The notes under the pieces: model-generated
The model's database searches: none
What the model was told of the DNA's origin: nothing
The model's input: the letters and a program-made list of their open reading frames with translations, nothing else
Shown: positions 48,307 through 64,000 of the stretch, piece by piece
Layout of the letters: the number at the start of each line of letters is the position of its first letter
Position numbering within the stretch: position 1 is the stretch's first letter
Assembly (NCBI GenBank): GCA_951804945.1
Contig: OX638154.1
Coordinates: 32,922,001 to 32,986,000 of the forward strand
Length of the DNA: 64,000 nucleotides
Source: Podarcis cretensis
Taxonomy: Eukaryota
Reading direction: 5' to 3'
Position numbers and translations under genes: made by a program

Positions 48307-49188
48307 CATGTTCTGTCTGTTCAGCTTCTGGTTTGTTTCCCTCCCAGCAGTCCTAAAATCCAACTTTTAAAAGCTCTATAGAATAGTTGCATAATTTCCC
48401 CACGTGTAGATGTCCTGCTGGGTGGCTATTTTGGCCAGTTATAGTCTGCATAGATTGCCCTAGTCATTTTCTTCTCTGTCAGCTGTTCCACCTCTCTAGG
48501 AATAAACACTATCGCATTAACCCCTCCATTTCTGTGCTGGAGAGGCAATCATGATTAGCAGTGCAGTGAATGGGGAGTATTTAACCCTTCCCTCACACAT
48601 AATGGCCCCAATGAAAATGGCCCCACTCCAACATTTGGACTCTGGAAAAGCGGAGTGTCCCCTTGGCTGAAGAGTGTTAGAAGTTCGGAAACAGATTTGC
48701 TGTTCTGCTTTGAGCATCAGCGTTTTGGTTGCTGCTAAATTGTCCACCACTGGAAGCTATCGCAGAGAAAGAACAGAGAATTGTGATATGGAATTGTGAT
48801 ACAACTTTTCCATTTGTATGCATTCATGCAGGAAATTTATACTGCATTTAGAGGAAGAAGTGCAGTGTATCCTGATATCCTGGTCCTTGTAAAAGTGGAT
48901 CTTGAGCAGGGAATCTAGATTACAAAGACTGCATCTTGTATTTTTGGATTACATTTTAGTGCGCTCCTTAGGCTGTATTCCAGTGGTGAAAAAAAAAATA
49001 GATTTTTTTGTGGTACCAATGCTAGCAGTGATAAAGTTGTGCTGTTATATGGGATCACAGCCATTTATTTTAAGCATGTGGGATGGGAAGCAGACAGGCT
49101 GCAGTTGACAAGTGGTGAGGGAAATGTACTCTGCACATGCTCAGAGGCAGGTAAAGACTAACGAATGACTTATTCAACCTCCCCACAG

Positions 49189-49360
49189 TCTCAGCCGATG
49201 AGGACTGCAAGTGGTACATGGACCGAAATGGCTCATGGCATCCCGGCTTCGACTGCCACTTCCCCTCCTTCTGCTGTGGTGACTGCTATCAGCGTTACTG
49301 CTGCATTGACCTCAGGAAACTCCTCACTGAACGGCAACAAAAGCACTGCATAGCATTTGG
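49189..49360 (+). CDS. SHISA4: SHISA4 exon 2 (Cys-rich Shisa domain)
   Basis: SADEDCKWYMDRNGSWHPGFDCHFPSFCCGDCYQRYCCIDLRKLLTERQQKHCIAF; 172 nt, CAG/GTAAG flanks. Confidence 0.94.
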
Positions 49361-51051
49361 GTAAGAACAGGCGAGATGTGTGCCAAAAAAGGGAGGGGCT
49401 GGGAGAAAAAGAGAGAGAGGAAGAAAGGGTCAAGGTTGTGCTTCAATACTTGAAAAGGCTAAACCAGATGGAGCTGAGGAGGAAAGAAGTGAGCAGACTT
49501 CTTATTATCCCCCACTCCTTTTTGTTCCTGATATGCAGCCATGGAGGGGTTGCAAATTTGATCAGATCATAATAGTGGCTGGGGGGGGGGGTAGGGGAAT
49601 AATCTCCTCTGAGTGGTTTTTATAATCAAAATTCCTGCTGTGCAGGTGGGAATGGCTTTCACCATGGAGATGGCCCCTGAGGGATGTTGGAAATTTTTGA
49701 CAAAACAGAAATGGGAGTGGGATTTGCCAATGTTCATTTATTTGCCTCATGTCCAAAACAGACATCCATCCAGTGAACATGATTGTTATTTGCTGCTGCT
49801 GCTGCTTTCCATCCTCAAACGATAAGCAATTAATTACATCCCTCCGCCATTTGCATTGCATCTCTTTGCATTGAAATGATCGGGGTGGAGTAATGCAGTG
49901 ACACGGTAATGGCATAATTTACTTAATTAATTACATAAATGATGTAAGTTACATAAATTCGCTACAATGGCCAGCGAGATGAATAACATTGTTTTTGGCA
50001 GAAGGTGAGATGCAGCAGAATGGAAACAGTTCTGCATGCTGGGAATACAGGGCAGAACGAAAAACACTGCCTTTTCACATCCCTACTGCAGACACGTGCA
50101 TATATACACACACTGTGATCAACACACCTCACTGATTTGAGCATAAAGTACAGAGCTCATACCTCAGTTAGAAATCATGGATATAGGTAAGATCAATCCC
50201 TAGTGGAGGTGAACCTCATGGGATCTCCTACTCCAGAGTTGGAAAACCACAAGCCCAAGGGCTGAATGTGGCCCGCCAGGCCTCTCTGTCTGGCCCTCAG
50301 GTCTGCTCCATGTCCTCCTTAAGTACTTCTGCCTAGCTGGAACATATCCTTGAATTCTGATATTACCTCTGGATTGCCTGGCTAGAAGATAGAGAGCTGT
50401 GTGAGCAACTTCTGACATTTGTGTGGCTGGAGTGCAGCCTACTATACAAAGGTTGCTCCACCCATTTTTAGCTTCTGACCCCACCTACTTTTTGTCTCTG
50501 CCCCTGTCCATCAATGGCATGTACCCTGCTCCCTCCAAAGGGTGCCCAGGAAGGATTGCAACCTTTTGACTATAAAATGTTCTCCACTCCTGGCATAGTT
50601 TCTATAGTCTCTCTACACACATATATTAAAATTGTCTGCCCCAAAGGTTGTTGGATCCAGTAGGTTTCCACTCTGCCCTCATCAGCTTTCAGTTAGCTTA
50701 TCAAGGCTTCCTGTTGATGCCCTGGTGAGTTAACTATTTATTCCATTTAACCCACAATCAGGGTAGCTAAAAACTAGAAGAGGAAGCATTTGACCACACA
50801 TTCAATGCCGGCTAATTCATGAAACTTGTATTCTTAATCATGTAATTATAGGTATAGGGTAGAGGGAGGGTCCCCCCCCCCCCCCGTACAGCTCATCCAT
50901 ATTGACAACACAATTTCCTCCTGTTATTATTAAGAAAAACCCATTTATTTCTACTTCAATCAAGTCTACTTCTGGAATCTCCGGTGTCTGGTTTGGTATC
51001 AGATGCTATTGTATGCACAGCTCATTTATCACCTCTGTCTGTATCTTATAG

Positions 51052-51185
51052 CCCCAAAACCATTGCTGGCATCGCTTCAGCTGTGATTCTCTTTGTGGCT
51101 ATTGTTGCCACAATTGTCTGCTGCTTCCTGTGCTCCTGCTGCTACTTGTACCAGCGACGGCATCACCTTCAGACACCCTATCAAG
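51052..51185 (+). CDS. SHISA4: SHISA4 exon 3 (transmembrane helix, Cys cluster)
   Basis: PKTIAGIASAVILFVAIVATIVCCFLCSCCYLYQRRHHLQTPYQ; 134 nt. Confidence 0.95.
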
Positions 51186-51880
51186 GTAGGAGAAGTCCTG
51201 GTGATGTGGGCCATGACCTTCTTTCTCACAAGTAGCTCAGGATTAGAGATGATATGAATCTCCACAATCTGCAAATTCTTATGCAGATATTGTTTATATG
51301 CTTTTGTGGAAGTGTTCTGGTAAGCTGCAGGTCTGATAATATCAATGTTTTTTATTTTTCTTAAGGCAACAATTGGATGTGCAAGGTCATGCAAAGCAAA
51401 AACAAATCAAATTTTCTTTGGTTTTAAACCTGTTCTGGATAACAAGATATATTCATGTCTCATAATGGAGCATATAACACGCAGAGAGGGCTTCAGCTGG
51501 GGATCAGCCCATTTTCTATAAAATGCATTCATATTTGCAATGAGACTTTTACAGTTCAGATGTGCTTTCCAATGGGGAATCTTTCCTGCGGCATTTGACT
51601 AGCTACTGTGGAAGACAGAGAGTGTTAGAGTAAATGGAACTTTGGTCAGATCCAGCAAGGCAGGCCTTACAGAACATTTGGCTTAAACCTTGATGTTCTC
51701 TGTCTTGGAGATGTTAATCTATCTATAGCATACTGTGTTTGTTGCCCAGTTAAATATGCTATGTAGCCTCTTCTGCAAGGATATTTATCAAGACAACTGA
51801 CCTGCAAGAGTAGACCTACACATTAGTAGATTGGGGCACTTAGCTGTGCTTTTCTTTGCATGTGTGGACTGTGAAAGCAT

Positions 51881-53701: not shown

Positions 53702-54147
53702 TACTTGGCTCTGGCTCCATGTGTTGTTGGCCTCCCTGCCTTCTGTCTTACCAGTCCCAATGGGCGCACTAGCCATCACTGCTACCAGGGTGGTTTAATG
53801 ATAAATTCCTCTTCACAGAGAGCTCTGGGAATTGTAGCTCTGGAGGCAGAATCTGGGTCTTCTCATAACTCTCAGCACACTTCAGCTCCCAGTATTCTTT
53901 AGGGGAAGCCATGACTCTTTAAAATGGCATCATAGTGCTTTAAATCTGTGGTGTGAATGTTGCGCAAGAGCTTCTTCTGGTTGTTCCTGAGATGCGGGGA
54001 GACAACACCCCCCTTATCCTTGTGCACTGTGCAGTATGCATCTGCTGAATGATGACTTTCACATCCACCCCTCCCTCTGAGGCTAGTCTCACTTTAACCT
54101 TCCATGCCTCTGGCCACATCCTGATTGCCCCTCTCTTTCTGCTGCAG

Positions 54148-54194
54148 CTCCCCCACCCTACATCCCACCACAGCCGTCACAGCCCAGCACCTGA
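54148..54194 (+). CDS. SHISA4: SHISA4 exon 5 (PPxY motif, stop)
   Basis: APPPYIPPQPSQPST*. Total CDS 591 nt = 196 aa. Candidate ATTAAA polyA signal at 54790-54795. Confidence 0.9.
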
Positions 54195-57100
54195 GGAGGA
54201 CCTTGCAGAGACTATCCAAAGGAGCCCTTTCTCTCTGGGTCTGCTATTTCCACAGAACCTGTATTGGGTTTCCCGCTGCACTGAAACTCCAGCCCAAGCT
54301 TCAGCATTTGCCAGTGTCCCTACTAGTTACCTTTTGCTCTGCATGGTAGGAGGCATCATGACTCTCTACATCTTTGCCTGCGCACCCGCCACCCCCAATT
54401 CTTGCAATTCCTGCCTGTGTCACTGTGGGGAAGCTGATAGTCCCCCTTGCTTTCCACCTGGGCTCAGGAAAGAGCATGTGTTAAGACTGCTACAAATGCC
54501 ATATGTGTCACTTGACTGTTCCATTGACTGTTCAGCTGAGCCTCTTCGATGGGAAAGGAAGAGGTGTCTCAAGGTGGCAACGAAGAGCAAAGTGCAATGG
54601 TCTGTATCTCACAGAAGGACATTGGTCCACCCTGTTCCCTGACAAAGCACAAGGATCCATTACGCCTGCTGTTCATGGCCCCAGGTTGAAGTTTTGTCTC
54701 TTAAGGAAGTCCTGAAACTTTGGAAAAAGGGGATGGGAGGATACGCAAAAACCCCAGGAGCCTGATACCACATGTGGCTGTTATACACCATTAAACTTAC
54801 TCACCCAGTGTCCCTTCTTTTTTTTTTACAAAAACAGCTAAGCTGGGTACTTATCCAGCATCCCTTACCCAAACCCTTTCCACTTCAGCTTTGTCTGTGG
54901 CCTTTGAGGGGTGGGTGGAGCTTAGAGCATCTACTTTAAATGAGGTTCTTTGCAGCGTAGCCATTATTTCACGTTTCCCCCAGGAAGTTATTGGTGCTCC
55001 CTGTAGCTTTGCCCGTATTCTGGCTGCATGGCTCTTTGTCTTGGCTGAGCAGCTCACCAATTTGCTCCTGCAGGCTTAAACCAGCCCTTCCTCTCAAACG
55101 ATAGCAACCTTCGGTCTGTGGAGATGAGGATGCAAGGTCCAGGGTGATGTCTCTCTCCTGATTCATTGACGCCAACCTTTGGAGCGGATAGTGTTGGAAA
55201 CTGACTCTTACAGTTTAATTCTCTGGAGTAGAATCATGGCACAGGGAGCAAGGCAAGAGTGTGGAACAAAGGCACAATATACCAGTCAGGGTACAAAAGC
55301 GATCATTGTGTGCAAAAAGGGAAATGTTGATGTCACAGCAGTGAAGCAGTTCCCCTTGAGCTCATGGCTCTTAGGAACGGATGAGGCCAATGGGCCCATT
55401 GTAAAGAGGGAAAATGCACCATGCACGTGACCTTTACTGCAAGACCAGAGCACAACTTTACATGGTGTGTTGCTGTCTTATGGAGCTGGGCTGCCGAGAA
55501 CGTTGTCTGGGAGTACATCTCAGGAGAGAGCTCAGACCTCTGTCTCTAGGGTGGAGAATCTCGCAAATATTTATTTGAAGTATGGGGCAGTATAGAAATA
55601 GCTTAAATAAATAACCTGTGCTCCCCCCACTGCTGGACTCCATCAACACCAGCTAACATGGCTAATAGGCAGGGATGATGGAAGCAGTAGTCTAGCAACA
55701 TCTAGAACAGCCTGTCCCCACCTTGGGTCCCCAAACGTTGCTGGACTACAACTCCCATCAGCCAAAGCCAATGGTCAGGGATGATGGGAATTGTAGTCCA
55801 ACCAGCTGGGAATCCAAAGTTGGCAAAGGATGATCTGGAGGACCCCAGGTTCCCCATCCCTACCCTAGGTCAAGCCTTGTTCCCACTGTGTGGGGGGCAT
55901 GGCCCTGCTATTTTCCGGGAGCTCATGTTATAGTCAGAATGACAAGTGTTGGCATCACAAAATGTTGGCTAAAATGTGGATTAAACTTGTAAATACTGAT
56001 AAAGCAACTGTTTTACGTGTGTGTTCTTCCTCTCTGTGAGGCATACAGGATGGTACATAAACCTGAAGCTGGTTCTGGGAGAATAACAACACTTAAGAGC
56101 GCTTTTCTCACTTTTGGAAGGATTAAGAGCTTGATATGGGGAAAATACGAGTATGTTGGAGAAAGGAAGGAAAGTGAGTCGGTGTGATTCTGCACTGAGG
56201 TGTGCACTCACAGGCCACTCAGAGTATTAATGTTTACAAACAGCTGCAAAGGTAAGCTTCTCCCACTTCTAAAGTGTAATTCTCAAGCAAGCTGGGGGGG
56301 GGGGAATATAGGCCAAAGTAGCCCAGCCAGTATTAAATAGCTAACTAAAGCCTGGTTGCCATGGTAACACAGGCTTGAATTTGGAACAGTGCTCTTGGTG
56401 TACAAAAATATCCCTACAGCGTTTCCCTGAACTGCAGCCCCATGTTTTAATTACAGCACTGTTTGAGAAACCTGTAGACCTTCGGATGTTACTGGACTGC
56501 AACTCATCAGTCTCCCCAGTTGGGCTGATGGGCGTTGACAGTCCAACAATAGGTGAAGGCACTCATGTTCCCCATCACAGAGGTACAGGTTTGCTCTCCT
56601 CCTTGACCCTCAGAGCTTTCTCTTTCTCCCCCCCTGAAGCATTCCTTCCCAAATGGGCACTCATTTCCCCCATGTAACTGACTTCATTTGCAAGGACAAC
56701 CACTTAACAGACGTTTTAATTTTGGATCAAATTTTGTCATGAGAAATCTTTCTTCTGCCTCTGAATGGTGTCTTACCCAGCCATAGGAATCTAACTGGAT
56801 CTCTGTATTCCTGCCACTGCCACTTCAACCTGAGGCTGTAAGCTTAAAAGTACTGTATGTTGCCATCTAGATCAACAATCAATAATTCTGTTGTAGTGGG
56901 CACTGTTCTTGCCCCCAGGGCAACCATAAGTGGACTCCACAACAAGTTTTAGCTCTTGATGATTTTCAGCAGGGCAAACCAAGCCCCTTCTGCTGATAAC
57001 TGTGATCGGCAGAGGAAAAAAAAGAGCACTGTGGAGGGACAGTTGGAGCAATAAGACCAAGTAAGTAAAATGGAGGTAGAAAAATCAGGGTTGTTCACTC

Positions 57101-57212
57101 CTTAGAAAAAGGACTCTGGATTTTCAGTGGAGACAGAAGCAGGGTGACGCAGTGCACAAACTACTGTTTAGCTAGATGGTCCACCAATAGCACAGACATG
57201 CTCTGCTTGGTA

Positions 57213-57471
57213 CCGTATTTTTCGCTCTATAAGACTCACTTTTTTCCCTCCTAAAAAGTAAGGGGAAATGTGTGTGTGTCTTATGGAGCGAATGCAGGCT
57301 GCGCAGCTATCACAGAAGCCAGAACAGCAAGAGGGATTGCTGCTTTCACTGCGCAGCGATCCCTCTTACTGTTCTGGCCTCTGATATTCAGAATATTTTT
57401 TTCTTGTTTTCCTCCTCCAAAAACTAGGTGCGTCTTTTGGTCTGGTGCGACTTATAGTGCGAAAAATACGG
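57213..57471. mobile_element. Tc1/mariner MITE
   Basis: TA|CCGTATTTTTCGC.CTATAAG...CTTATAG.GCGAAAAATACGG|TA. Confidence 0.85.
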
Positions 57472-57690
57472 TAACTGATTCTTAAGCAGAGATATCAATT
57501 TCACTGTTTTATTGAGCTGGGAATGGAAGGAGAATCCAAAGGAAAACCTGTCCTGAAAACAAACAAACCTGTAACTCCACAATAGCTGAATAAATTCTTC
57601 CCCATATTAGTCACTTCTGGAGTAGCTGGCACCTTTCCGTGAAAGGGCATGTGCATCCAGATTGCTCGGGATCTTCTGCCGGTGGACCCC

Positions 57691-58235
57691 TCATTGCTTG
57701 GGTACCACCTGCTGGCGGAGGTAGAGGTCCCGGATCTCGGACAGGCTGCTGCAGACGCCTCTCAGGGCTTCAGCAATGCTGTGCAAGATGGAGGCAGTCT
57801 CCCTGTGGCTCTCAGTATATTCCTGCCGGAAGGCACGCACCTCCTGTGCCAGCTGCTCATTTGACTGGACAATCCGCCTCTCTGCTTGGCTCAGATGGCT
57901 GCTTTCTGACAGCCCTTCCTGAATCGGCACAGTCTCAGGAGCAACCATATCTCCTATGTTGCAGTCGCTTAGGTGCCCAGGTGGTGGTGACTCATGGTCA
58001 AATGTGATGCTTGCATAATCCGAACCCAGGGCCTCTGAGAGCTCAGTCTGTGAGGAATTTGAGGGGCTTCTCCTCCAGCCCTCACAAGGATCATTGGGGG
58101 CATGGGCACAGCTCCTGATCAGCTGCGTCTCAGCCCCCTGGCTCCCACGCTGGTGGATGGCCTTAGTGGGAAGGAAGTGGAATGGCTCTGACTTCACATC
58201 TACTGGTTCTTCTTTCACTGGCTCCTCCTTCACAC
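57691..58235 (-). CDS. Myb/SANT-like protein, exon 2 (SUMO motifs, C-terminal coiled coil)
   Basis: Pyrimidine tract plus CAG acceptor at 58238-58236. Phase matches exon 1 (G|GT). 545-nt open frame; total 331 aa. AATAAA on the minus strand at 57508-57513. Confidence 0.82.
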
Positions 58236-58345
58236 CTGCCCAGAGCAGAGAGGACAGATCAGGTTAACTCAAAGTAGCAGCCAGCTAGAGCCACGAGCCC
58301 TTTCAGGGCTTTCCTGACATCCAAACATGCAGTTAAAAAGAGAGA

Positions 58346-58590
58346 GAAGAAGATGAGTTTGGATTGGATATCCCACTTTATCACTACCTGAAGGAGTCTC
58401 AAAGCGGCTAACATTCTCTTTTCCCTTCCTCCCCCACAACAAACACTCTGTGAGGTGAGTGGGGCTGAGAGACTTCAAAGAAGTGTGACTGGCCCAAGGT
58501 CACCCAGCAGCTGCATGTGGAGGAGCGGAGATGCAAACCTGGTTCCCCAGATTACGAGTCCACCGCTCTTAACCACTACACCACACTGGT
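58346..58590 (-). mobile_element. MIR/CORE-like SINE in the intron of the Myb/SANT gene
   Basis: Reverse tRNA-like head (GTGGTGTAGTGGTTAAGAGCGG) and CORE-like GTGACCTTGGGC. Confidence 0.7.
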
Positions 58591-60225
58591 GTAGAGAGAG
58601 AAAGCCAACTTCAAGTTGTCCCAAGAACCTATATCAAAGGCTCTATCATCATACAGAAATGTTTTGGTACAGGGAGACAAGAAAGTGGAAAAGAAAAATA
58701 TGCACTGCAAGATGGAGTATAAGAAGCTGCTTTGTACCACGTTAGACCACTGGTCCTTGTAATAGGTTTTTTTTCAGGCAGTCAAAGGTAGCTTGAAAGA
58801 GGGATTTCTAATTGTATGCATGCCCTTGGGCCATTTTTACCTCTGGGGAAAAACCACGAGCTTTCCACTATGTCAACAACCTGTAAAAACAGTTTGACAA
58901 AAATATGTGTACATAGCCATTGGAAGAAATGCTTTACCCCTCAATCTAAAAGGCTCTTGCCTTGCTGTATCTAACTTCCCTCATCTGTTGTTGCTGTGAA
59001 GAAATAACTCTCCGCATTATCAGGATACCACTCTCTACTACATTGTATCATCAATGCAACTTCTTCCTATCTTGTCATGTGATATGCATGGCAATGTCAG
59101 CACTTCAAAGACCAATCCATGCTGTTAAAAATAGTGATTTTGATAAAAATGAACCTAGCCTGAAGGCCAAGAGGGCAAAAGAACAGGAAATACATCAAGG
59201 CAGAGGCGGTGGCGGCACAAATGAACAGAAAGCTGAAAGAGCAGGCTATGAAAGCAAATGCTGGCCATATTCGCACCATACGTTTAAAGTGCTACGGTGC
59301 CACTTTAGTCACACCAAAGAATTCTGAGAAGTGTAGTTTGTTAAGGGTGCTGCAATTGGCAGGGTGGCTAAACAATCAAGTCCTCTTCCCAGAGTATTAT
59401 TGGAATTATAATTTTGTGAGGGGAATAGGCATCTCTTAACAAATCTCAACATCCCTTACCAAATGACATTTCCCAGGATTCTCTGGGGGAAGCCATGACT
59501 GCTTATAGTGGGATGATACCGCTTTAAATCAGGGTGCGGATGTGGCCTTCTGTTTGGAAAAATAATTGCCTTCACCTAACATCACAATAATATAAAGTGC
59601 AATGAGACTTCCAGAGTTCACACTCCAGCAGTAAGAGAACTTTTTATATTTTTATACCGGTATATATAAACTAGTGGCAAATGTGATAACAACTTGCTAG
59701 TTAATTACAGTTCTGTTTCCCCACATGCCTCCAGTTTGGTAGGCTTTGTGTAAGCAGAGGTATTTAAATGTGTTATTCCCAGTGCAGCTTAGCCCTTTGA
59801 TAGGGCTTTGATTTCACACGCCTCCCCACAGTGTCTGCAAGCAGCAATAACAAATTTATGTTGGGTGTGCAATAATGGAACTACTAAAGAGATTTTGGAT
59901 TGATTTTTATTGGACAAATGGATACATGGGAAAATAAATTTGCTTCTCTAATTTCAGCAACTGTAAACCTATTATCAAAATACTTCTCACCGCTAAGTGG
60001 ATGCTCGTGTTTCTTAGCTATACCAAAATCTTGTTTTGCTGGTCCAACAAATACACCCCAGGTGACTTTTTACATCAGTGGTCAGGTGCCTGTATGCCCA
60101 ATTCCTACCAGCCTCAGCCAGCAATGTCATTGGTGAGGGATGATGGGAACTGTAATTCAATGTGTGGAGGCCTGCAAGCTCCCCATCCCTGTTTTAAACC
60201 TGTCCAGGGGCAATTCCACACCATA

Positions 60226-60459
60226 CAGAGGTACCTCGGGTTGCATACGCTTCAGGTTACATACGCTTCAGGTTACAGACTCTGCTAACTCAGAAATAGT
60301 ACCTCGGGTTAAGAACTTTGCTACAGGATGAGAACAGAAATCGTGCTCCAGCGGCACGTCAGCAGCAGGAAGCCCCATTAGCTAAAGTGGTGCTTCAGGT
60401 TAAGAACAGTTTCAGGTTAAGAACGGACCTCCAGAATGAATTAACCCGAGGTACCACTG
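60226..60459 (+). mobile_element. Tc1/mariner MITE inserted at a TA within an older repeat
   Basis: TA flanks and TIRs; splits CCACACCATA|CATTTAAAGCAC. Confidence 0.82.
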
Positions 60460-61269
60460 TACATTTAAAGCACATGGCTCCTGCCCCCCCCCAAGACTCC
60501 TGGGAATTGTAGTTTTTCCCCTCCCAGAGTTAAAATTCACAGTGCCCTTAAACTACAGCTCCTAGCATTCTTTGAGGGAAGTCATGTGCATTGGATACAT
60601 GTGCCTTATGGGCATGCTGTGAGTATGCTAGGCCAAACGAAGTTAAGTGCTGCTAGAGCGATGACTCAACTTCCATGAGGCTGCTACATGGGTGGCGCCA
60701 GAGAGGGGTGGGGGGGCAATCACCCTCCAAACAAGCCCCACTCCCATTGCTGGACTCGTGTCATCAATATATGCTGTTGATTTTCTTTCAGTGATGTGGG
60801 TAACAACTTGCCCATCTAGAAATATACTTTGCCCCTTCTGTGCCTCCTACCCAGAAACATTTTTTTCTGGTGCCACCGCTGGGTGGATGAAAAGGGTCAC
60901 TGGTCAGTTCAGAGGTGGGGAGGCTTTGTGGGCCAACCTTCCAGGAGCCACATGTCAGTGATGAGTGGGCCAATGGCTGTGATTTCTAGTTTGAGAGGAA
61001 AGCTACATTCTAGAGATGAAATCCAGAGGTTTCTACACACACACACACACACACAATCCTCAGAACTCTGTTGAGCGTACTGGGAATGTGAGGTTTGTGG
61101 GTGGGAAACTATCGTTCCCAGGATTCTTTTGGGGGGAAGCCATGTGCTTTAAAAGCACACCGCATGCACTTTGAAGTGCACAGGGCATATCACACACTCA
61201 TACATCTATTCAGGCAAGCAAAAGGTATTCGTCACTCCCAAAGGACACACATTCCAGAAAGCCATATGA

Positions 61270-62230
61270 GAAGGCGTCATAGGGTCTGCGAGGGGCGTGG
61301 CCTACGGAGGGGGCAGTGCTAAACCAGAGCATCCCGAGGGCCAAATGGCTTCCAGCGGGCCGAATGGAGAGGCCTCATTGGGTCCCTGCGCCTGAGGGTT
61401 CCCCCACCTTTGGCTGTGGGCGGAGAACACTCACCCTGAAGAGCCACAACCTCCATAGCGGCAGGCGACAGCGGCGCATCCGAGGGGCGCACGCTGGGCG
61501 TGGTCCCCTCGGGGCCGAGCTCCGGTGAGCTGTGGGGCTCGCTGCTGCTGCTGCTGCTGCCGTCGCTGCCGGGGAGGTGGGCGAGGCGGGGTCGCCCCCC
61601 GGCCAGGGCCTGGCGCTGCAGGAGGCGGTGCCGGGCGATCTTGTCGTTGGCGCGGCGCCGCAGTCCCCGCCAGCGGTTCTTGACCTCGCCGATGTCGCGC
61701 TGGTTGCGCCCAGCCGCGTTGATCTTGTGGGTGATGCGCCACCAGATCTTCTGCTTCTCGTAGGCGTTGACGGTGGCGCCGCCGAAGAGCAGCTGCTCGT
61801 AGCGGAGCACCTCGCTCATCAGCACGTCGATCTCCTGCAGCGTGAAGTTGGGCTTGCGCTTCAGCAGCCCGCGGCGCCCGGCCATCGCGCGCACGCCCCA
61901 GACACATCGCTCTCCGCCGCCGGCGGGAGAAACGCGCGGGCGGCGGCGCGGAGAGAGCGCGAGAGCGCAAGGGCCTTTTGTCTGCTGCTGGCTGCGCCGG
62001 GCCAGCCCGTCTCTCGCCCCCTGGCGGAGGCACTTGGCGCAGAGAAAGGAGATGGGCGGCGTGGGAATCGGTGTTCGCGTGTTTGTGTTTGCTCCTTTAA
62101 AGGAGCTGGACCCCGGCTCTGTCCCCCTGCAGGCTAAATCTGATCCATGTGGAATCCCCGCTCTCCCACCCGGCAGAAGTTCTCCCACGTGGCGGGCAGA
62201 AGTTCAGCAGGTGATGCTTTTCACGGAGAG
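61270..62230 (-). promoter_or_regulatory. CpG island of the Myb/SANT-like gene
   Basis: Very CpG-dense block covering exon 1 and upstream sequence. Confidence 0.75.
61435..61885 (-). CDS. Uncharacterised Myb/SANT-like DNA-binding protein (MSANTD/NAIF1/MYPOP-type), exon 1
   Basis: Strong Kozak gcgATGG. KRKPNFTLQEIDVLMSEV...EKQKIWWRITHKINAAGRNQRDIGEVKNRWRGLRRR is a Myb/SANT-like trihelix pattern. GTGAGT donor, phase 1. Confidence 0.88.
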
Positions 62231-63462
62231 GCAGTGATGTGAAAGGTCTCCTTGCTGTAATTCCTCCTGCACATCACACGTGTAGTAAAAGCCCCAGAAT
62301 CCCATTTTAAAGACTAATTAATATATTGTGACATAAACTTTTGTTGACTAGGGAACCCCGCTTGTCTGGTGCGTGGAGATGAACTTACTTCCGCTTTAGC
62401 TTACCTGGTGTTCTGCAGCCGCCACTGTTTTGGGCTTCAACTTCCTTCAGCTCTAGCCAGGAGCAGGTTGGTTAAGGATTTCCTTCGTCGTACATTGCGT
62501 GCATTAGGGCTATCACTTGGTTCAATAAATTCCCGTCATTTGCACAGTTAAACGTGTGCTTAATTGGACTTAAAAGTCCATAATTGTGCCTGGATTGTGC
62601 CTTAATTGAATCTCAAAATATTAAAAACAAAATACCTCTGCAAATCAATCCAATAGCAATGTGCTTTTCCTTGAGCATGTGAGGCAAGAATCCCACCACT
62701 TGAGGGCAGGGCTGCATTAGCCAAGCGGAAAGCGAAGTCCCAGACTATTTCTCCATCCTTTCAGTGCATGCTGATTGGTGAAATCAAAGTGTCGGGATTG
62801 ATGATAGTTATTCAAGATTAACTAACACTGGAGTAAGACAGTGTCCAGCCTTGATTAAAATCCATTGCTCCGCCCCTGCCACTTGTGTTTTCCCCCTAAG
62901 TGTTGTGTTCCACAACTTGTGATAATGGTTACTACTACCGGTGCTCTAATGAAAGTGGGATCTAAGGACCCTGATCTTTCTACTGATCCTTTCACCAGGA
63001 GGGGAATGTGGAAATGAAGCTGAACAAGAATTCCCATATATTTCTTTTATTTCTGCCCTCTTCCCAATAAAAAGCAGGCCCCTTTACAGATGATTCCATT
63101 TTTACTGCCCCCTGCAAAAACAACAACAACAAAAAACAACAACCCCTACTTAAAAGGTGCCCAGCAGAAAAACAAATGCATCTATTTGTCTGGAATTTGG
63201 CAGACAATATTCACTCAGAAAGAGCTGGCAACCCGGCACATTTTAATCAGTTCTGGAAAAAAGAAAAAAAAAAGTGATAACTGATTAAACAGTGCGCTAG
63301 CCCCATTGAACTTCACCTTCCTCTCCATGGGCGTAGTCAAGGGGGTTGCACTGATAAAAATCAATATGAATCTGAGGTTCCCCCCCTAACAAAAATTCTG
63401 GCTACACCCATGTTCCTTTCATCTCCCTGCAGCCCTCTGTGTGCCCTCAAAATTTGGTCTGG

Positions 63463-63617
63463 AGGATTGGGATAGCTCAGTCAGTAGAGCTCTTCATCTG
63501 AGGGTCTCTTCATCTGAGGGTCATGTGTTCAAGCCCCATGTTGGGCAAAGTATTCTTCATTTCAGGGGGTTGGACTAGATGACCCTTGTGGCCTCTTCCA
63601 ACTCTATGAGTCTATGA
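63463..63617 (+). mobile_element. tRNA-derived SINE with CR1-type tail (tRNA-Lys-like head)
   Basis: GATAGCTCAGTCAGTAGAGC...GTTCAAGCCCCATGTTGGGC head with the same tail as the 9485 copy; internal 16-bp tandem duplication. Confidence 0.72.
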
Positions 63618-64000
63618 AACAGATTTTGGATGTACATGGGGTGGCTGCACTTGGGAGGACAGAAAGCTTCCTGGAATGCAGGTTTCTGCCCATTTTTTTT
63701 TAAAAATCAGTAATTGGGAATCAGAGATGAAAAGACCATGGCTATGTCATGTTGAGCTCCTGAGACATTGGGAGATCCATGATCCAATAATCCTCATTCT
63801 TTTTAAAATTTAAAAATTGTGCATGTGGGACAGTGGTGTTGGAAAGGATAACTCCTTTCCTCCTACTGCTTTCATGATCAGTATTCCCACTTCCAAGCTA
63901 TATTTTGCATTCCAGGGAACTTGCAGATATCCACCCAGAAAAGGGGCAGAAGAGATTGTCACTGATCAAACCAAAGAACAGGGTCTCTTTTCCAAATTAA

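Follow-up and report, generated by a model that had tools for sequence, protein, structure and literature searches.

The gene described here lies on the minus strand of a 64,000-nucleotide stretch of the Podarcis cretensis genome (the window; NCBI GenBank assembly GCA_951804945.1, contig OX638154.1, positions 32,922,001 to 32,986,000 of the forward strand), between positions 57691 and 61885, and encodes a protein with an N-terminal Myb/SANT domain. Translation starts at an ATG at 61885 in a strong context, with G at both -3 and +4. The coding part of exon 1 (61435-61885) supplies residues 1 to 150 plus one base and is made up of the Myb/SANT domain and a variable low-complexity linker, and that of exon 2 (57691-58235) runs through residue 331 and the stop codon. 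Between them lies a phase-1 intron of 3199 nt (58236-61434) with GTGAGT...GCAG ends, a pyrimidine tract and branch-like sites, which holds several high-copy interspersed repeats. The joined frame is 996 nt long, specifies 331 residues and contains no internal stop. An AATAAA polyadenylation signal sits at 57508-57513, 178 nt past the stop codon; at this end of the gene a contig from sequencing run X2 stops at 57506, and one from run X11 runs 247 letters past 57500. The promoter and first exon are embedded in a CpG island (about 61250-62500) with a GC content of up to 0.72 and a CpG observed/expected ratio of 0.66-1.05, and the 415 nt before the ATG contain GC boxes and no match to TATA or CCAAT. 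An out-of-frame ATG located 22 nt before the start codon (61907-61905, minus strand) opens an overlapping frame; its phase is altered by a 19-nt insertion in run X21, and it is thus not conserved. The intact spliced frame, CpG-island promoter, strong Kozak context, phase-matched GT-AG intron and AATAAA that a first-pass annotation had proposed from the letters alone were all confirmed.

Splicing was examined in 6 of 18 sequencing runs that are probably RNA, a status guessed by the tool, as none of the 18 is recorded as such. The exons are joined in three of the six (X2, X8, and X11), which span two studies and three organism codes of related species, at the 61435/58235 junction that had been predicted. 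In the X2 contig precisely 3199 nt are missing, bounded by CT..AC, and its short side is at least 255 letters long; X11 provides a single 1456-nt contig with both exons back to back, and X8 shows the same joint, but with a short side of only 30 letters. Runs X1, X6, and X16 were rejected as spliced: the X1 contig enters the intron, X6 consists of fragments, and X16 breaks off at the exon edge, 30 letters lying past it. Among the rows listed, the DNA-like runs X17 and X21, both of them large, cross both exon-intron borders unspliced. The two-exon, 331-residue model is a real spliced gene.

Structurally, the protein has four conserved blocks: a trihelix domain, a block of three psi-K-x-E motifs, a short middle stretch, and a C-terminal helix. 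The trihelix domain (residues 10-84; 61634-61858, minus strand), which is also seen in structure models, matches Myb_DNA-bind_5 (PF13873) at 54 bits against a gathering cut-off of 21.7 (E 1.7e-14, model positions 1-77 of 78), in agreement with its earlier assignment to the NAIF1/MYPOP/TSNARE1 group. F14 and W48 are invariant across 28 rows, and W72 is nearly so. A basic cluster at residues 4-11 (61853-61876, minus strand), conserved in the homolog alignment, is a candidate nuclear localisation signal. The AlphaFold2 model of a close homolog, P0003, contains three confident helices, disorder from residue 97 to 253, and a long helix from 260 to 319. For the isolated domain, the complex of the Zeste DNA-binding domain with DNA (PDB 5cqq) ranks first and plant GT-1 next in both Foldseek and VIA, the Zeste match having a Foldseek probability of 1.0 (E 0.009), a VIA Z of 8.7 with a root-mean-square deviation of 2.7 over 70 aligned residues, and an identity of 22-24%. 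Fold searches with the full-length model returned unrelated helical bundles only, exon 1 found nothing below E 1 in the PDB by phmmer, exon 2 had no significant match in Pfam, and the protein has no Pfam match to a SNARE domain. Matches in the ESM Atlas were confined to PF13873 and related Myb clusters (0.85-0.93), which is a family-level lead.

Exon 2 opens with three tandem psi-K-x-E SUMO-consensus sites, at lysines 153, 158, and 165 (58186-58233, minus strand). The triple motif is present in 74 of 88 homologs, in none of 129 paralogs of at least 200 residues, and in none of 10000 shuffles; of the 14 homologs without it, six have no exon 2 or are wrongly joined, and the others retain one or two sites. 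The block forms a conserved island, with a mean column conservation of 0.90, flanked by variable linkers. Of the 79 paralog representatives that could be scored, 44 carry an L-T-x-x-E motif after the domain; none of the 88 homologs has it, and as such the protein has departed from the common layout of its family. The C-terminal amphipathic or coiled-coil segment noticed at first reading (about residues 267-326; 57709-57888, minus strand) is predicted as one 60-residue helix in the model of P0003 (predicted local distance difference test score 86-96), with a single hydrophobic heptad register and a periodicity peak at 3.5 residues. This heptad-repeat helix, a predicted coiled coil, is homologous to that of a Myb protein encoded at the PRDM11 locus.

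The gene is placed tail to tail with a Shisa-family gene, whose convergent exons (49155-51226, plus strand) provide a synteny anchor, and downstream of a same-strand leiomodin-type gene. We take these neighbours to be SHISA4 and LMOD1, and presume that no gene stands between the two in human. Faulty gene models in quail and canary begin with exon 1 of the gene and then run antisense through the Shisa exons, so the Shisa neighbour is, on this indirect evidence from two species, conserved in both birds. A table places human IPO9, LMOD1, and SHISA4 together at one locus (PMC7320185). In curlew, the model P0035 links exon 1 to sequence named ATXN7L2, through mis-assembly or local rearrangement. 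Within the lizard's own genome, the domain and the helix have one match each, and the next matches to the gene are 32-41% identical, among 11 PF13873 loci in total. Of the 47 inverted repeats in 54000-64000, none of the 25 longest makes a convincing pair of flanking terminal inverted repeats (TIRs). Ten transposase-like queries brought up nothing of that kind in 144 kb, and contig C6 holds no match to PF13359 (DDE_Tnp_4). High-copy short elements lie at 57211-57473, 60224-60461, and 58300-58590; two resemble miniature inverted-repeat transposable elements, their terminal inverted repeats measuring 29 and 19 nt, one repeat resembles a short interspersed nuclear element, and they are unrelated to the origin of the gene.

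A word-based search with the domain returned 88 proteins, 83 of them named, all from lizard, turtle, alligator or bird, and five unnamed. A search with a 19-row alignment returned 116, comprising 89 named sauropsid proteins, 26 unnamed ones, and chimpanzee TSNARE1, the last at 119 bits versus at least 221. An exhaustive profile search of 1.84 billion representatives (E up to 0.001) gave 655 hits, and in the best 150, which were examined, the 13 rows of at least 220 bits are all this gene or its fragments, the next row beneath being a two-domain TSNARE1 at 121 bits. Per-domain profile scores are 170-183 for the sauropsid gene versus at most 70.5 elsewhere. The 30 lower profile rows that were named include mammalian TSNARE1 and MYPOP and bird PRDM11 isoforms, as well as proteins of newt, frog, caecilian, lungfish, coelacanth, bichir, sturgeon, ray, and hagfish. 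The unnamed short rows P0102, P0103, P0105, and P0147 resemble degraded pieces of the gene.

Compared with the alligator domain, identity is 81-97% across sauropsids (lizards, turtles, birds), and the best outsider reaches 44%; in turtles, alligator, and birds the linker keeps an identity of only 32-62% over the positions that align. Three coding indels in relatives, among those listed, are all multiples of three, while several indels in the untranslated regions are not. No counterpart in mammal, amphibian or fish was found in the homolog and profile searches. Sister-gene domains retain 87% identity between lizard and wombat, 90% between lizard and MYPOP, and 72% between lizard and lungfish. 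An intact mammalian ortholog evolving at an equal rate would have shown up. The first-pass annotation had suggested that the gene might be kept in non-mammals; this wording is too wide, as the gene was found in sauropsids only. No snake, anole or tuatara protein is among the named hits in either homolog list, a gap that possibly reflects loss or annotation.

Databases carry the gene as MYPOP-like, TSNA1 or t-SNARE domain-containing protein 1-like, and its best mammalian match is TSNARE1. These labels could mean that it is a mis-named ortholog of MYPOP, TSNARE1 or NAIF1, but ground-squirrel MYPOP has its best lizard match in another locus, L020 (164 bits vs 39 for this gene), all four TSNARE1 domains tested match locus L023 best (75-78 vs 57-66 bits), and the SNARE domain is missing. 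TSNARE1 and L023 group at 99/97 after removal of six long rows from the tree, and the best lizard match of the wombat PRDM11-locus protein is likewise another locus. MYPOP, TSNARE1, and the PRDM11-locus gene thus each match other lizard loci and fail as reciprocal best hits, in line with the earlier impression that no named mammalian gene fits, and the labels MYPOP-like and TSNA1 are wrong. That the gene is the helper open reading frame (ORF) of a Harbinger transposon still active, or dead only recently, is largely refuted by its single copy, the lack of TIRs and transposase, and its conserved neighbour; the many dispersed TIR-flanked copies that would mark such an element are not found in the lizard's own genome, and the earlier report of no TIRs or transposase nearby stands. 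Taken together, a mis-named ortholog or a transposon helper is highly improbable. Descent from Harbinger is very probable on the basis of family membership, a Harbinger ancestry of the Myb-like family having been published (PMC9392472; bioRxiv 10.1101/2021.02.09.430442), and the likeliest single origin would be a transposon copy that became fixed in a stem sauropsid, although we place it slightly below an even chance. Three trees were built, of which the 156-row tree is a quick version; the trees on 86 columns do not resolve deep branches. The orthologs form a single group in all three (support 96; 91/84; 84/85). Sister rows in the three trees are caecilian ORFs, unstarred, at 87/84 and 93/79, followed by a lungfish protein, also unstarred. 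The caecilian sequences P0130, P0287, and P0168 are related Myb ORFs on three chromosome-scale contigs (90% over 279 residues, 76% over 131 residues); three copies on three contigs fit a mobile family, and they are probably a transposon family annotated as genes. Bichir P0111 and caecilian P0130 and P0287 were rejected as orthologs, the alignment being confined to the Myb domain. The independent domestication that had been proposed is a candidate history only: none of five alternative pairings with named groups is rejected by approximately unbiased (AU) tests (p 0.20-0.41), and by its C-terminal helix the gene leans toward the one at the PRDM11 locus.

That helix is the mainstay of a different history, to which we give a low probability, in which an older domesticated host gene, likeliest the two-exon Myb gene nested at PRDM11, was duplicated in an early amniote or sauropsid. 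The DNA-binding domain would then have diverged and the SUMO cassette been gained, so that the gene would be transposon-derived only second-hand; alternatively, the two genes may share a transposon parent. Among 21 families aligned by hhalign, only the PRDM11-locus family aligns outside the Myb domain (score 41.7, E 9e-6, 33% over 63 columns), the next family scoring 24.1 and reversed controls at most 21.4, and hmmsearch gives its helix 17 bits versus 9.5 for the reversed sequence. The two proteins are of similar length (337 vs 331 residues), both genes have two exons and a phase-1 intron, and the AU test does not reject their pairing (p 0.22). However, their Myb domains are only 34-36% identical, the two group together in none of the three trees, and descent of the two genes from related transposons would account for the shared helix just as well. 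The phase-1 intron, located 121-156 codons past the domain start in this gene and five other lizard family loci, is common to all six lizard family genes checked and so does not discriminate. In the full-length alignments, A1 versus A2, only the Myb portion was aligned. Unlikely to a slightly greater degree is a gene older than sauropsids, arising in lobe-finned fish and lost in amphibians and mammals, with lungfish P0107 as its ortholog. By domain identity P0107 is the closest protein outside sauropsids (44%). Among lizard genes it matches this one best, if narrowly (68.8 vs 65.3 bits), two trees attach it to the clade (88/85 and 88/84), and its helix ranks second among the helix matches; yet that match is at background (probability 3.7%), a sister gene retains 72% between lizard and lungfish where P0107 has 44%, the protein is 543 residues long with a different layout, and its own word-based search found 33 other proteins at 34-50% identity and no ortholog of this gene.

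On balance we favour, with some reserve, a conserved single-copy host gene, likely derived from a Harbinger Myb-like helper, whose product would bind DNA, self-associate, and be switched toward repression by SUMO. From its anatomy, chances seem evenly balanced that the protein acts in the manner of Drosophila Zeste and mammalian MYPOP. Import into the nucleus would be through the N-terminal basic cluster, where helix 3 and the basic N-terminal arm could read a short DNA site. Self-association of the C-terminal coiled coil may then allow cooperative binding at multiple sites, and SUMO on the three central lysines may recruit co-repressors, acting as a switch toward repression. The models for this are as follows: Zeste oligomerises via a leucine zipper at its C-terminus (PMC3927085), repression by MYPOP depends on its DNA-binding domain (PMC6265261), and the regulatory domain of c-Myb is switched toward repression by SUMO (PMC2926607). 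It is also conceivable, though doubtful, that the main job of the protein is to partner a Harbinger transposase-derived protein in a chromatin complex, with the C-terminal helix binding this partner rather than itself. NAIF1 with HARBI1 and plant ALP2/HDP2 with ALP1/HDP1 set such a precedent (PMC9392472), and the lizard genome offers candidate partners in 12 DDE_Tnp_4 matches, several of them long open ORFs of 30-57% mutual identity and some without catalytic acids. Unlike in adjacent co-domesticated pairs, however, transposase-like sequence is lacking both in the 144 kb and on contig C6, and, the post-domain motif being absent, the common family layout has been abandoned. A transposase partnership can also coexist with the preferred reading.

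Several points weigh against this preferred reading of a repressive host gene of transposon origin. All spliced runs come from related species, none with the Podarcis cretensis label, and their RNA status is guessed. Fold matches are middling, with a Z of 8.7 near the tool background of 7-8 and a Foldseek E never below 0.001. The psi-K-x-E motif is short, and matching it does not prove modification, and MYPOP's C-terminal portion is inactive in repression (PMC6265261). With regard to origin, Harbinger ancestry has family membership as its one basis, the caecilian sister link is unstarred and the placement of those ORFs in transposons is an assumption, and the C-terminal helix is closest to that of a host gene. 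Lastly, close lizards differ at no fewer than 20 places in exon 2; among the differences listed, 6 are synonymous and 14 non-synonymous, and the resulting pN/pS of 0.68 is not distinguishable from neutral (p 0.29). The case for function is made instead by deep protein conservation together with the in-frame coding indels.

The closest known class is that of NAIF1 and MSANTD1-4, with the candidates MYPOP, TSNARE1, PRDM11, and ZSCAN20 (PMC9392472), with which this gene shares a PF13873-type trihelix, a single copy in a fixed position, expression, and the lack of TIRs. Unlike the NAIF1/MSANTD class, it was found in sauropsids only, has a triple SUMO-consensus cassette, and lacks L-T-x-x-E. The genes named in the accessible part of that source are all human, and this gene is not among them (PMC9392472). 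The PRDM11-locus Myb gene, known from birds, lizard (L022), and wombat (P0110) and annotated as PRDM11 isoforms or MYPOP-like, likewise has two exons, about 335 residues, an N-terminal Myb domain, and the homologous helix, but it lies on another chromosome, has a marsupial ortholog and a basic C-terminal tail, and has a helix one heptad longer and no triple SUMO motif. MYPOP/p42POP (PMC6265261), a sequence-specific repressor with the same Pfam domain and overall layout, is the best functional model among vertebrate relatives. The lizard, however, has its own MYPOP ortholog in L020 (90% domain identity), and at 33-34% identity between MYPOP and this gene, the target site probably differs. Zeste (5cqq; PMC3927085) provides the nearest solved fold, an N-terminal DNA-binding domain, and a zipper, serving cooperative binding as an oligomer, to set beside the predicted C-terminal coiled coil; this is an analogy of layout and not orthology, oligomers being known for Zeste and only predicted here. 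The Myb-like ORF of autonomous PIF/Harbinger transposons (PMC9179366) shares the trihelix domain and conserved bulky aromatic residues, but these elements have TIRs of 25-50 bp and a transposase ORF, and this single-copy gene has neither. Transposon Myb-like proteins also diverge quickly (PMC9179366), whereas the domain of this gene evolves slowly.

Other family loci in the lizard genome (G000) deserve mention. L016, L017, and L018 resemble what we take to be NAIF1, MSANTD3, and MSANTD4, the domains of L016 and L018 being only 28% and 40% identical to that of this gene. L026 (C17, 34.68 Mb) is a truncated copy of L018, itself presumably MSANTD4-like, with an in-frame stop and is therefore a pseudogene. 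L019 (with L037-L038; C1, 46.51 Mb) is another two-exon PF13873 gene without a name; it has relatives in anole and lungfish and probably also in birds and turtles, and no mammalian member among the named rows; its family was rejected as the closest paralog via the C-terminal helix, the score of 15.8 being at background. L022 (with L048; C1, 53.60 Mb) is the two-exon Myb gene behind the PRDM11 PR-domain exons on the same strand, and this type, which is also present in wombat, is annotated as a stand-alone 337-residue protein and, in birds, as PR-Myb fusion isoforms. L023 (with L043-L044; C12, 4.23 Mb) is the lizard locus nearest the TSNARE1 Myb domain, with a second exon with a helical segment downstream, and a SNARE exon was not found within the surrounding 60 kb. 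L025 (C16) is a further, unassigned PF13873 ORF. About eight long open Harbinger-transposase-like ORFs (L027-L033 and L036; contigs C2, C12, and C13) are mostly 30-57% identical to one another, several of them without catalytic acidic residues, and are further candidates for domesticated HARBI1/ALP1-like genes. L034 and L035 resemble what is presumably HARBI1 itself.

The first-pass annotation had singled out the gene as an undescribed system, which is too strong a term. That vertebrates have domesticated Harbinger Myb-like genes repeatedly is already published (PMC9392472), and automated models of this gene exist under borrowed names in many genomes. A paper on the gene itself was not found in a search that left subscription papers mostly outside, and the supplements of PMC9392472 could list it. 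The gene adds an undescribed sauropsid member to a class already known and does not amount to a new system. New here, from the sequence comparisons, are the three predicted SUMO-consensus sites, the apparent loss of the post-domain motif, and the predicted helix homologous to that of the PRDM11-locus protein. At its most speculative, and we consider this unlikely as a whole, the gene might be a stem-sauropsid transcription factor tamed from a Harbinger transposon that landed between SHISA4 and LMOD1, after which it acquired a SUMO switch and lost some of the transposon layout. It might then be one of an unrecognised reptile set, of several unnamed Myb genes and about eight intact, partly catalytically dead transposase genes, that forms chromatin complexes like ALP1/ALP2 and HDP1/HDP2 and was missed by human-centred surveys. 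As the class is already known, the surprise is moderate, but many bird and reptile MYPOP and TSNA1 labels designate the wrong gene, and the published tally of vertebrate Harbinger domestications is too low. The gene is directly testable in chicken cells and embryos, and with a domain kept at 81-97% from lizards to birds and no mammalian counterpart found, it would be a reptile and bird regulator invisible to work on mouse and human.

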